From assembly GCA_951406725.2 (NCBI GenBank), contig OX597830.1:31992001-32056000 (forward strand): a stretch of DNA of 64,000 nt. Reading direction: 5' to 3'. The DNA comes from Octopus vulgaris. Its lineage: Eukaryota. Positions 6,831 through 58,696 of this stretch are shown piece after piece. The notes under the pieces were generated by a model. The model saw nothing but the letters and a program-made list of their open reading frames with translations. It had not been told where the DNA came from and searched no databases. Within the stretch, counting starts at the first letter, position 1. Each line of letters opens with the position of its first letter. The position numbers were made by a program, and so were the translations under genes.

Positions 6831-6878
6831 GTCTCCGAAGAAGGGATATAATAAATATCCTAGAAACGGCTGTAAGAC
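6831..6878 (+). ncRNA. Minimal type I hammerhead-like motif with mutated core (CCGAAGA)
   Basis: GTCT-CCGAAGA-AGGGATAT..ATATCCTA-GAAAC-GGCT-GTA-AGAC; same ~150 bp family as 20320-20367. Confidence 0.65.
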
Positions 6879-7130
6879 CTTCTATTTATAAATGTTCTAA
6901 AATCTACACACCTTGGTCTTTTATCTCATTATGGGAAAAAAATTTTTATATACACACGCTGATACATGACCTACGTTGGACCCCTTATTCATATAATCAC
7001 CAAACATGGAACTTAACTATGGTCTATCCATAGCACTTATTCAGCATTACTTGACACCTTTGGGTCTCATTGACACCATTACCTATCATAATCTCTCTCT
7101 CTCTCTCTCTATATATATATATATATTTAT

Positions 7131-7425
7131 ATTTAAAGTATAATTATAAAAATATGATTATAATTGAGGGCACTGGAGGGACAGTGCCTGTGCACTAGAA
7201 ATAGATGTCAAACAACTACAAAGCACATCAGTTAGCACTCCATTTAACACAAGGCTGTATGTGAGGGAAATGGACAGAAAGGATTTATTTAAAATATCAT
7301 GTTTTGCAATACTAAAATTGCTTTAAGTGGTTTGTAATCATTTGACATCTATTTCTAGTGTACAGGCACTGTCCCTCAAGTACCCTTAATTATAATTATA
7401 TTTTTACAATTATACTTTAAATGTT
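7131..7425. repeat. Inverted repeat, ~95 bp arms, next to (TA)n
   Basis: gagggacagtgcctgtgcactagaaatagatgtcaaa versus tttgacatctatttctagtgtacaggcactgtccctc. Confidence 0.85.
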
Positions 7426-7511
7426 AATTTAACCCATATATAGTTCTTTGTATGTTGGGCACTGATAAATCATTAATTAATGACTTTATCCTAATTGTGC
7501 ATAAATATATT

Positions 7512-7750
7512 TTTATAAGTCAGGTACTTATTCTATCAATCTCTTTTGCCAAACTGCTAGGTTACAAGGATGTAACAAACCAACATCAGATCTCAAAGGA
7601 CGGGGTAAGGACACACACACACACATACACACATGCACACACACATGCTATATGCTTGCACACAGTTTGTCAACCAAATTCACTCACAAGGTATTGGCCA
7701 ACCTAGAAACACTTGCCCAAGGTGCCATGCAATGTGACAGCTGAACCCAA
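7512..7750 (-). mobile_element. SINE family A, degenerate
   Basis: tacttattctatcaatctcttttgccaaactgctag...cacttgcccaaggtgccatgca. Confidence 0.7.
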
Positions 7751-9384
7751 AGCAGAAAGCAAGAGAGAGACAGAGAGAGAAAGGAAGAGAAGGTCATGGC
7801 TGGAATGCCTTTGATTATGGATGAATCAGCTTTATCAGAACCAAGAAATTGAACTGCAAAATGAAAAATTAGCATCCCTAACACTTAGAAATAAAACAAT
7901 AAAATAACGCCCCCAAAACCCCTAACATTTCCAACCCTTAGTTCAAATAATAATTTCTTTCTAACAATCATTTATTTTGGCTTAAGGAGTAAACCCCTTC
8001 TTCCCTTCAGTTCTCTGCCATGGTAAATAATTTGACTAAAATGGCTTCACGAGAAATTAGTTACCAAAAATAAAATTGCAATTTTCAGGCTGGATGTAAA
8101 TCAAAGATTAGGAAGGTCAAAGGTTACATAATAATCAAGTCATTTACTCTAAGTGGCACTAAATGGTTGTCATAATTAGCAGACAATTCTGACGTTAATT
8201 ACTCCGATTTCTTTCACACACACACACACACAAACACACGCACACACACACACATGCATGCCTACATAACCCCTCTCTCCTTTATTTACCCGCTCTCCCT
8301 CTGGCTGTCTCTCATCTCTCTCTGTCTGTTTCTATCTTGCCCGCTGCTTTCTCTTTTGCTCACATACATAAAGATATAGATACTTATATATATATGTGTG
8401 TGTGTGTGTGTATATATATATATAGATATAGATAGATAGATATATATATATAGATATATATATATGCATATATATGTATATACAGTATATACATTCATGT
8501 ATATATGTAAATGTATATGTATGTATATATATATATATGTATGTGTGTGTATCGTGATTTATGTATGCACACACACACATACATATATACATATATATTT
8601 ATATATATACATATTATTTATACATATATATTAGATTATGTAATATATATATATATATATATATACGTGTGTATGTGCGTATGTGTGTGTATGCATCTAT
8701 ATCTATACATATGTTCCTATACACATATACTACATAAATAATATACATAAATATATATAAACGTATATAAGCCGATAGGTAAATATAGATGTATAGACAA
8801 CTATACACACATACACACACATACGCATACTCAATAAAGAAACCATTCACACTTATCTACATTCCCTAAAATATGACTTCAAGCTAGAGTGACCACATAC
8901 ACACAGACAGAAACGCACACACACATACACTCATACACACATATATATATGTATACATATGCATACACTAATTATTAATTGACCATTAAACGCACACACA
9001 CATGTACACTCACACTGTCTACTTTTTGAACAGTTAATCACACACACAGACATTTTCATTCAACTGACCATACACATATACACACACACACACACATACA
9101 CTCAAGCCATCTAAATGACCAGCACCTCCTCCACACTCCACCTAATGACCCTCCCACCCTCCACTCCATATCATCCTCGACTATAGCTTCCGTCACCCTA
9201 AACTCTCTCTCACCCCCACCCCCAACTCCTCACTCCACCCATCCGCCTACCCCCCCCAACACTACCTTCACTGACCACTATGTTAAGCCATACCTTATAC
9301 TGTCCTGTGGTCATCATATTAACTGACCCCATATAACCTTCATTAATTTTGCCGTGATTAACAAATTTTATAGCAAAATGGCGG

Positions 9385-9960
9385 GCCTAGAGGTACTGGT
9401 GGTGGTGGTAGCAGCGGAGGTAATGGTGGTGCTGGTAGTGGTAGTGATAGTGGTGGTGATAGTGTTGGTAATGGTAGTGATAGTAGTGGTGATGGTGGTG
9501 ATGGTGGTGATGGAGATAATGGGGGTGCTGTTGTTGGTGGTGGTGATAACAGTGGTGGTAGTTGTAGTCATCATCGTCATGGTTGTGATAGTGGTAGTGG
9601 TGGTGGTGGTGGTGGGTGGTGGTGGTGGTGGTGGTGGTGGTTGTAATGGTGGAGGTAGCTCTGCTGCCAGTGATGTGGAGGTGAAAGCGTTGATTGTGGT
9701 GTTGATGGTTGTTATGGTGGTAGTGGTCGTGGTGGTCATCATCATTGCCGCCATGGTCATGGTGACAATGATAGTGGTGCTGGTGGTGATGGTGGGGAGA
9801 GTGTTGTTGATAGTGTGATGACATTGGTGGAGGTGGTAGTTGTGGCAACGATGGTGGTGTCTGTTGTGTCGGTGGTGATGATGATGGAGGTGGTGGTGGT
9901 GGTGGCAGTGGTGGTGGTGGTGGTAGTGGTAGTTTTAGTACATTTGGTAATAGTGGTAGG
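9385..9960. repeat. Degenerate (GGT)n/(GAT)n field
   Basis: Direct inspection. Confidence 0.85.
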
Positions 9961-56251: not shown

Positions 56252-56291
56252 CCAGAGTTCTTTCGTCACACTTCTGTGACCTCATCAGTGG
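56252..56291 (-). ncRNA. Minimal type I hammerhead ribozyme, canonical core
   Basis: Reverse complement CCA-CTGATGA-G-GTCAC-AGAAGT-GTGAC-GAAA-GAAC-TC-TGG; lies between 47 bp inverted repeats 56149-56195 / 56388-56434. Confidence 0.75.
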
Positions 56292-56641
56292 TCCTTTGTT
56301 TTCTTCTTTCTTATTTGTGTGGCTCTCCTTACTAACGATCAAAATAAAGCTGAAGCAAATAAACACCAAATATATAGTGCGTGTATTTTTATTGGCTAAA
56401 ATGGCAACATGACCATTCCTAAATACAACAATATATATATTTATATAATACACACATATATACATACATACATACATACATACATACATACATACATACA
56501 TATATATATATATATATATATATATATATATATATATATATATATATTTATATACATACACATATATATATATATATACATATTTATATACATACACATA
56601 TATATACGTATATATATATATATATATACACACACACAAAC

Positions 56642-57340
56642 ACAAAATTAAGAGGAATGACCACTAACGTGGACACCTAATATGCTAAACATAGACGTCA
56701 AATCGCCATTACCACGAAGTGTGTGTTCTGAAGAAAAAAATTTTTGAATATGCTAAGCCACTGGTTTTAATTGATTAATATCAATTTCTACCCTTATTAT
56801 TTAATTTTAAATAAAAAACGTTCTCTAACTGGTAAATCGGCTGCTGAAATTTATTAGCTGCAGAGTAATTTCCGCCGTCAGTGAGCCAAAGTGAAGACAT
56901 TTGAAAGATACACCCAAATATAATTTGTAGAACTTTATACATGATCGATTTCGGTTGAGCGTTCCGTATCTAGTTCTGGAAATTGTGTTTTTTTTTAAGT
57001 GACAGACTACGCTGACGATCTTGCAGATATCTGCGTCTTTGCATACGTAGATATTGATAAGTGAAACCATGGTATGTAGGTAATCGTTTTTTATTTTGTG
57101 TATTTTCATTTGTCTTGCTCATTTTTACATTTTGGCGTTTAGCTGAGATTTTTCTTGAGAACACACTCTTCGCGGTAATGGCGATTTGACGTCTATGTTT
57201 AGCATATTAGGTGTCCACTTTAGTGGTCATTCCTCTTAATTTTGTATGTAACACAATTTTTAATCTTCGGATTCTTTAAATATGCTAAGCCACTGGTTTT
57301 AATTGATTAATATTAATTTCTACCCTTATTATTTAATTTT
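56642..57340. repeat. Element with ~96 bp inverted repeats and a ~62 bp direct repeat, TA-flanked
   Basis: IR 56642-56737 / 57149-57245; DR aatatgctaagccactggttttaattgattaata.. at ~56748 and ~57279. Confidence 0.85.
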
Positions 57341-57349
57341 ATATATATA

Positions 57350-57520
57350 TCTATTATATAAAACCCATTCTGTCTGTCTGTGTGAGTGTGTCTTCTAGGA
57401 TCTCGGGCATCCTCCATCCGATTGCGCTCAAATTTGATATATAGACACCGACGGTATCAGGGCGTGTATAAGTCTTGAAAAAATTACAAAAATCGATTCC
57501 AGGTGAGAATGCGATCAATA
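57350..57520 (+). mobile_element. Helitron-like non-autonomous 5' end
   Basis: TC start tctattatataaaa, ctgtctgtctgt, ccgattgcgctcaaatttg; a related piece at ~57740-57860. Confidence 0.5.
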
Positions 57521-58648
57521 AAGTGAATAAAATCGTTTTTCTTTGGAAAAGAAAAAAGTCTATCTTTATTTCTTCTTTTGCTGGTGTCTCAAATTTTGGT
57601 TAAATCAATGTTTCTCAAGGGGGGGGGTCTATGGGACGGACGGACAAGTTGTTTTGAGAAAATTTGGTTTAAATGTTTGACAACTCAGCACCGTCCATTT
57701 GCTCGTATATATATATATATATATATATATATATAATTCGCTTTGTGTGTGTGTGTTTCCTGTATGCACAGCCAAACTGCTGGATCAGCCTGTACCAAAT
57801 TTGGCATGGAGGTTTTTCTGTACACAGGGAATATCCTAGGGGGTCAAATTTTGGCTCCTACCCATATAGGGGCTATAGCCCACCCCCATAAAACCCTTCC
57901 AATTTTTATTTTCGGCAGATTCCTGTTTTCTATATAGAGGTTCCCAATATGCAAAAACCATGTTTTCAAAATTTTAAATTCCCCACTCCCCACCAAATTT
58001 TAAACTTTTAACTTTATTCAGATTTTTCATTTTTACAATCTATGGGGGAAATAGGGAGATTAAAAATAGGAAAAAATAGATCTTATTTAAAATTTTCTAT
58101 GAAGAACTCCAAAATTGATCTACATACCCCCACACCACCCCATCCCTTTGTCTAAAACTGAAAATGAGGTGCTAAAAATAACAGCTAAATGTCTGAAAAT
58201 TTTCTGTGTTTGTGTGTGCATGCATAAAATAATTTCTACAGCTTATGCAAATGAACAGAGAAAGTAAATAGAAATATGTTTTACATACCTGTCGTATACA
58301 TTGGTTTTGTTTTTCCATTTTAAAGGTAAATGATTCTCATAGAAGCAAACATGATATTGAATAATTCTACGTCATACATCTACGACTCCTACCACTTTTT
58401 TAAAAGTAAAGATAAACACATTTTAATTGTGATAATGAAGCAAGGGGTTTAGTCCTTACCATCAAAATTAATTTCTCTAGCAAAAGAGAGGGTGCCATTT
58501 TCTCTCTTTTTCAATATTTAATTAGAAGAGAGAATATGTTGTTACCAAATATATATATATATATACGTATGTGTATGTGTGTATATGTATATATATATAT
58601 ATATATATATATATTGGTGGATAAATATTCTTTATTTCTAGGTTAATA

Positions 58649-58696
58649 AGGCTACCATTCGTTTCATGCTGAGAATTCTCAGCAATTATCAACCCT
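58649..58696 (-). ncRNA. Hammerhead-like motif, U3-A8 core variant
   Basis: Reverse complement AGGG-TTGATAA-T-TGCTGAG-AATT-CTCAGCA-T-GAAAC-GAATG-GTA-GCCT; near (TA)n. Confidence 0.55.

Follow-up and report, generated by a model that had tools for sequence, protein, structure and literature searches.

Hammerhead motifs with non-canonical but paired 3-8 core positions in repeat families, several of them Penelope-like, of Octopus vulgaris

Minimal hammerhead ribozymes have been described in several kinds of mobile element, the closest to the present case being the hammerheads in the pseudo-LTRs (LTR, long terminal repeat) of Penelope elements (Cervera and de la Pena 2014, PMC4209133), which were reported not to cleave as monomers and to cleave at low levels as dimers. 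The motifs considered here lie in a 64,000-nt stretch of the Octopus vulgaris genome (OX597830.1, 31,992,001-32,056,000), hereafter the window; the genome spans 2.8 Gb and is rich in microsatellites. A type I hammerhead layout, claimed for 12 places by an earlier reading of the letters alone (the sequence-only reading), was found at all of them, and the 12 motifs fall into eight families, named A to H. With the published Penelope hammerheads they share this layout, the extra residue between position 9 and position 10.1, the G10.1-C11.1 pair, the palindromic stem III (absent in G), the mostly solitary or inverted copies and the UUU cleavage sites. Families with a U3-A8 pair were already reported there, with about 1,300 matches in Schistosoma mansoni; the accessible part of that alignment, in contrast, holds no G3-C8, U6, C4 or C9 core and no cephalopod sequence, whereas in O. 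vulgaris such cores are those of family masters with thousands of copies.

Natural variants of the hammerhead core have also been collected by Perreault et al. (2011, PMC3088659). The authors confirmed the 3-8 pair and described U3-A8, A6C, U4C (in a viroid) and a U-U at 10.1-11.1; the A6C change, the sole natural case assayed at position 6, had low activity. The portion of their text available names no G3-C8, A6U or A9C, and its variants are rare single sequences, whereas here they dominate repeat families. In PAc, the Poseidon element of Anolis (PMC11167929), the pseudo-LTR hammerhead lies beside the start codon with a tail running into the frame, as it does here; the C3G/G8C swap is in that case a laboratory double mutant that partly rescued cleavage, and the frame starts inside the motif, whereas in O. 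vulgaris the swap is natural and the frame starts downstream. The G3-C8 text match in the accessible part of PMC3884650 is an engineered variant only. Natural U3-A8, U4C, A6C and U-U at 10.1-11.1, as well as minimal Penelope hammerheads, are already published. Natural G3-C8, A6U and A9C hammerheads were absent from the literature searched, a coverage that was incomplete and took in neither figures nor Repbase and Dfam, which may hold such variants; as far as that search goes, G3-C8, U6 and C9 appear to be new as natural family masters.

The window by itself is weak evidence, because a descriptor requiring intact stems and the palindrome passed three of the 12 motifs and 20 rounds of local shuffling of the window yielded 0-3 matches, with three in one round; a stricter descriptor passed one motif. 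These figures, together with the decay evident in single copies such as those at 22465 and 11521, are what chance matches or random decay of a canonical CUGANGA core would give. Decay affects most of the window copies, so that the argument has to be made from the whole genome, and there this explanation was refuted: thousands of matches stand against none in controls, the variant core is the majority, and the free-core counts for families C, D, H and E show variant cores. The probability left to it is negligible.

In the genome-wide pattern searches the seven core letters were left free (N), GAAA and UH being required by the descriptors and not by the C and A patterns, and a reversed-pattern control gave no match for any family pattern; core tallies out of 100 are counts by eye among the first matches listed (for family C, on contig C1). 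Family C gave 5,228 matches, and among the first 100 the core was GUGAACA in 88 and carried G3-C8 in 93 and C3-G8 in none. The stems are conserved across copies, as 26 of 30 family C loci keep the exact GAAA-palindrome-UUU-stem I half, which the search pattern left unspecified. Family B and its sister B2 gave 37,143 matches, 18,217 of them CUGUNGA (U6); the 100 listed include CUGUNGA with A (19), U (23), C (11) or G (6) at position 7, and CCGACGA (21). Position 7 of family B accepts all four letters, with C3, G5, U6 and G8 constant. For family G 4,125 matches were found (C9 in 92 of 100 listed), for family E 214 (UUGAAAA in 91 of 100) and for family A 332, where 27 distinct copies include CCGAUGA (8), CUGAUGA (7) and CCAAUGA (5), a spread that probably reflects CpG decay from a C4 master. 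U3-A8 occurs in 14 of 16 family D copies and 15 of 17 family H copies, and the canonical core in 10 of 13 family F copies, the F and H sets consisting of those copies whose DNA matches the window copy best and hence being biased towards it. The 12 matches to the family D pattern are not a copy number, its loop having been fixed at 6 nt though 5 nt is commoner; a first pattern (13 matches) was dropped, as it assumed a wrong stem I.

The majority cores of the window families are therefore CCGAUGA in A, CUGUNGA in B, GUGAACA in C, UUGAAAA in D and E, CUGAUGC in G and UUGAUAA in H, and only F has CUGANGA as its majority core. All eight consensuses keep G5, GAAA (12-15.1), U16.1 and an NUH site, and family consensuses show stems I and II around the three-way junction; stem III is palindromic in A to F, nearly so in H and not in G (AGAACU). 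As judged from these majorities, the odd cores are those of family masters and not products of decay. The non-canonical cores proposed by the sequence-only reading hold at the level of the consensus, which leaves no room for canonical masters with random decay. Its list of cores was right for eight of the 12 motifs; CCGAAGA at 6831 and the family B cores CUGUCGA, CUGUUGA and CUGUCAA were not on it, and the U6, C4 and C9 family cores had been missed. CUGANGA descriptors would miss most of the motifs here. Further hammerhead families, with UUGACAA and UUGAUAA (U3-A8) as well as canonical cores, were seen at other loci (L217:1276-1316, L110, L153, L099, L256, L267).

The evidence for selection on these motifs comes from the pair between core positions 3 and 8. 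Position 8 is the Watson-Crick partner of position 3 in all five window copies that lack C3, as had been noticed from the letters alone, and all 13 family consensuses (those of the eight window families, of B2 and of four families found in fetched loci) have a Watson-Crick pair there, with seven C-G, five U-A and one G-C. Permutation of position 8 among the 13 families gave p 9e-5, a value that overstates the evidence, as the families were picked by the authors and are related, and copies of one master agree by descent. An unselected check was made by free-core scanning of 800 kb, taken as 80 pieces of 10 kb each from round-number positions (four adjoin the window): of 37 matches 17 had G5, and 15 of these had a Watson-Crick 3-8 pair (13 C-G and 2 U-A), with no G-C pair among the matches in this sample. 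Three shuffles of the same 800 kb gave 8, 7 and 4 matches, of which 1, 1 and 3 had G5 and none was paired. In addition, contigs from four public runs, which bear four organism labels, carry variants at a frequency of at least 5% at three of the eight loop II places of the family C motif and at none of its 42 other places (Fisher p 0.003).

Families C, D and G offer the most direct comparison. They share the starts of their reading frames and form one clade with a support of 99 in the Shimodaira-Hasegawa-like approximate likelihood ratio test (SH-aLRT; quick tree, 43 rows). Their stem II is compensated (GUCGC/GCGAC, GUUGC/GCAAC and GUCAC/GUGAC) within a common frame, G-GUyrC...GyrAC, yet the pair at 3-8 is G-C, U-A and C-G, respectively. 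The at least seven families with unrelated stems of the sequence-only reading thus become eight, three of which are related by clade and by stem II. We infer that among sister lineages the identity of the pair shifted two or more times, with selection on the RNA fold preserving the pairing in the masters; the direction of change is taken from C3-G8 being the prevailing state in published lists, and no DNA context accompanies the relatives in the tree. This would be evidence, from natural sequences in high copy number, that selection acts on hammerhead positions 3 and 8 as a pair, also in the G-C state, which the literature searched gives only as an engineered mutant.

It could be argued instead that these are vestigial ribozymes, hammerheads by descent whose cleavage is no longer needed and whose weak or dead variant cores were fixed in the masters by drift. 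The C9 core of the successful young family G, U6 in 18,217 matches and the C4 masters agree with this idea, and so do two published observations, each from the accessible part of its source: hammerhead mutations had no effect on Penelope insertion in vitro, with no RNA ends at the cleavage site (PMC11167929), and Naiad elements thrive without canonical hammerheads (PMC8557442). Drift leaves unexplained, however, why all 13 families have 3 paired with 8, the sisters in three ways; the G-C swap requires two transversions, every consensus retains G5, GAAA and U16.1, and variation avoids the stems and core. We regard loss of function throughout as unlikely.

Five of the eight window families (C, G, D, B and A) are tied to Penelope-like reverse transcriptase (RT)/GIY-YIG sequence. 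Copies of family C that extend upstream lead back about 1 kb to a GIY-YIG frame, so that the motif stands about 1 kb after the stop of a frame with RT and GIY-YIG. At locus L195 this frame is open for 1,025 aa, with GIY-YIG at E 1.8e-5, above the Pfam cut-off, RT motifs and a CX3CXXC linker recognised by eye, and a best named relative labelled RT domain-containing; a single frame with RT and C-terminal GIY-YIG is thus present, the latter by Pfam and the former by eye and by named relatives. A partial tandem at L213 has the order motif-frame-motif with a spacing of 4,261 nt and a broken frame, and another partial tandem lies at L199. In the upstream repeat of L213 the start codon follows the predicted cut by 57 nt, and the family C core is therefore non-coding; codon constraint as the cause of this core was rejected on the same ground. 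The element of family G is a sister of the C element, to which it is 54% identical over 814 residues, and has open frames of 1,312 aa. The C and G motifs adjoin long open frames, D lies behind a decayed relative of the element, and endonuclease remnants were found upstream of A (L359/L127) and of B. Of 30 family C loci, 21 have an inverted copy no more than 400 nt upstream, two pairs being the same insertion. The short copies are ends truncated on the 5' side; they mostly adjoin (TA)n and are often preceded by an inverted copy. Judged by these structures, the pseudo-LTR that houses the G3-C8 motif is that of a young element whose frame spans 1,025 aa.

As in endonuclease-positive Penelope-like elements, there are tails, partial tandems and inverted copies on the 5' side, and the targets are microsatellites. 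With the Neptune/Nematis and Hydra clades (Craig et al. 2021, PMC8557442) the octopus elements share the C-terminal GIY-YIG, the cysteine linker, partial tandems, 5' inverted copies, tails and (TA)n targets; the likeness to Neptune/Nematis rests on the cysteine linker as seen by eye, the tree having held unnamed relatives, and the endonuclease remnant of family A resembles the Hydra type, also by eye. The hammerheads in File S2 of that study are all CUGANGA, and five window motifs searched for were absent from its supplement. Several results count against the assignment to Penelope. Pfam RVT_1 matched neither L195 nor L198, the latter without any Pfam match, and the endonuclease matches for A and B fall below the Pfam cut-off; no frame was tied to E or F in the loci examined (L360 and L361, respectively) and none was linked to H, for which no dedicated search was made beyond copy collection. 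A sequence search against PDB gave no match. On balance, C, G and D are placed in the Penelope class by their frames or, for D, by a remnant, and A and B are probably members. The RT fragment near the family E motif of L360 is 2.5 kb away with other repeats between; the fragments there (L360:7134-9500, + strand; RVT_1 E 6e-5, below the cut-off) are of another Penelope-like element and are not tied to the motif. A direct-repeat pair in L171 was rejected as a full element, as it proved to be a 3.5-kb tandem segmental duplication copying several element ends. Composite repeats also occur, in which the end of one family stands directly within or next to the (TA)n tail of another (L151, L064, L115, L044).

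The sequence-only reading had left the choice between Penelope and retrozyme-like elements open. Non-LTR retrozymes, as described in the available part of bioRxiv 10.64898/2026.07.22.740005, share the type I hammerhead and a Penelope origin; they are tandem non-coding units, whereas the window copies are ends of coding elements. No window motif lies in a tandem non-coding hammerhead unit. The Penelope half of the proposal stands for the five families above, and the window copies are 5'-truncated ends of Penelope-like elements, not retrozymes; such dispersed copies are dead. The only family in a tandem unit is family I, outside the window, a retrozyme-like 362-nt non-coding repeat with U3-A8 and an ACGCGU palindrome (L208, - strand, 992 and 1354; L265, - strand, 965 and 1327).

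A separate feature of family C is a stretch that resembles a branch point, is rich in pyrimidines and ends in CAG; it precedes the motif by about 15 nt (L213:4690-4720; 468 exact matches genome-wide), and many short copies start exactly there. Drosophila Penelope has a leader intron, and the stretch may be the 3' splice site of such an intron; no spliced joint was found in contigs.

Taken together, several Penelope-like lineages probably carry the motifs in their pseudo-LTRs as minimal type I hammerhead folds, with non-canonical masters and a likely slow self-cleavage as dimers. Through the stem III palindrome one element RNA would pair with another, or the two pseudo-LTRs of a read-through transcript with each other, and two active sites would so be completed; cleavage would follow the NUH triplet (UUU in C and D), the cut would trim the precursor RNA to unit length or set the RNA 5' end, and the element's own enzyme would then copy the RNA into microsatellites, with selection in master elements keeping 3-8 paired while the identity of the pair shifts. 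An inverted copy is antisense and hence not a dimer partner in the same transcript. In fold predictions the family C monomer forms stems I and II with an open core, and in dimers of D, E, A and I the palindrome pairs across the two strands. Cleavage as dimers is called into question by the dimer predictions for C, B, B2 and H, in which the palindrome is not paired between strands, by the young G subfamily (4,125 matches), which has C9, a stem I of 3 bp and a stem III without palindrome and yet multiplied with 1,312-aa open frames, by the Anolis insertion results cited above, and by U6, the commonest core here despite the slowness of the natural A6C change at the same position (PMC3088659). C9 and U6 may hint at weak or relaxed catalysis in some lineages.

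The fold could also have been selected for a non-catalytic role, as a protein-binding or dimerisation site or in translation control of the frame 57 nt downstream. The motif sits in the 5' leader, positions 4, 6 and 9 tolerate change here, and the Anolis Penelope hammerhead was reported, in the accessible part of that study, to cleave only with protein present (PMC11167929). Such a role is nevertheless improbable, the NUH cleavage triplet being present in all eight window families. Formation of the 3-8 pair is to our knowledge confined to the hammerhead fold that is active in catalysis, which also speaks against it. Returning to self-cleavage as dimers, a further step can be proposed tentatively: a recently mobile element might run on a natural G3-C8 hammerhead and the commonest hammerhead here might carry U6, both cleaving, with sister elements sampling three 3-8 states that tune the rate downward and canonical searches missing most hammerheads in such genomes. 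The role of the ribozyme in Penelope elements becomes directly testable with the sister elements, whose cores are C-G, U-A, G-C and C9 and of which two have long frames.

The window copies themselves illustrate the families in various states of preservation. Family C is represented by a truncated element end between microsatellites (11441..11582, - strand, bounds approximate) with the motif and a short tail into the start of the reading frame; the motif (11521..11570, - strand) has the core GUGAACA (G3-C8), a 7-bp stem I, a 5-bp stem II, an AAUAUU palindrome and a UUU site, with GAGA in place of GAAA. Two family D copies carry UUGAAAA (U3-A8) on the - strand: that at 16866..16901 has a decayed stem II and lost stem I to another insertion, by eye a tRNA-SINE-like repeat (SINE, short interspersed element) at 16902-17000 that interrupts it, and the decayed copy at 25297..25334 is followed by a head-to-head inverted partial copy at about 25335-25480. 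The family G motif (56252..56291, - strand) has CUGAUGA in the window copy, the dominant young subfamily being CUGAUGC (C9), and its stem III is not palindromic; a tail consisting of the first 28 codons of the frame lies at 56100..56183 (- strand), with 89% identity to the 1,312-aa frame in L198. Letters around the G core (GACC ... GGUC; 56252-56300 and L198) could, by eye, form a hairpin that hides the core.

Family A occurs at 6831..6878 (+ strand), a decayed copy with core CCGAAGA (master CCGAUGA, C4), a palindromic stem III and a GUA site, and at 20320..20367 (- strand), where CUGAUGA is a likely CpG decay product of the master. The three U6 copies of family B are CUGUCGA at 11231..11269 (- strand; stem III palindrome decayed at one base), CUGUUGA at 21992..22027 (+ strand; stems intact) and CUGUCAA at 22465..22502 (+ strand; stems intact, C3-A8 mismatch through decay). 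The family E copy at 20945..20980 (+ strand) is intact, with UUGAAAA (U3-A8), an ACCGGU palindrome and a GUA site. The family F motif (55682..55771, + strand) has the canonical core CUGAAGA, a long loop II, the palindrome ACGAUCGU and CAAA in place of GAAA, with an inverted partial copy near 55250-55430, and the decayed family H motif (58649..58696, - strand) has UUGAUAA (U3-A8) and a U-U at the base of stem II.

An Rfam scan of the window gave no hammerhead among the best 150 of 653 matches, which were dominated by microsatellites, and a repeat search of the window returned microsatellites only. A coding-like stretch at 21200-21900 (- strand), without a Pfam match above the cut-off, is broken by a trinucleotide run. 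Short tandem arrays lie at 15307-15477, 25987-26182, 47985-48160 and 48995-49066, with units of 65, 42, 44 and 30 nt, respectively, and a DDE_1 transposase fragment (Pfam E 4e-13) at 54133-54546 (+ strand).

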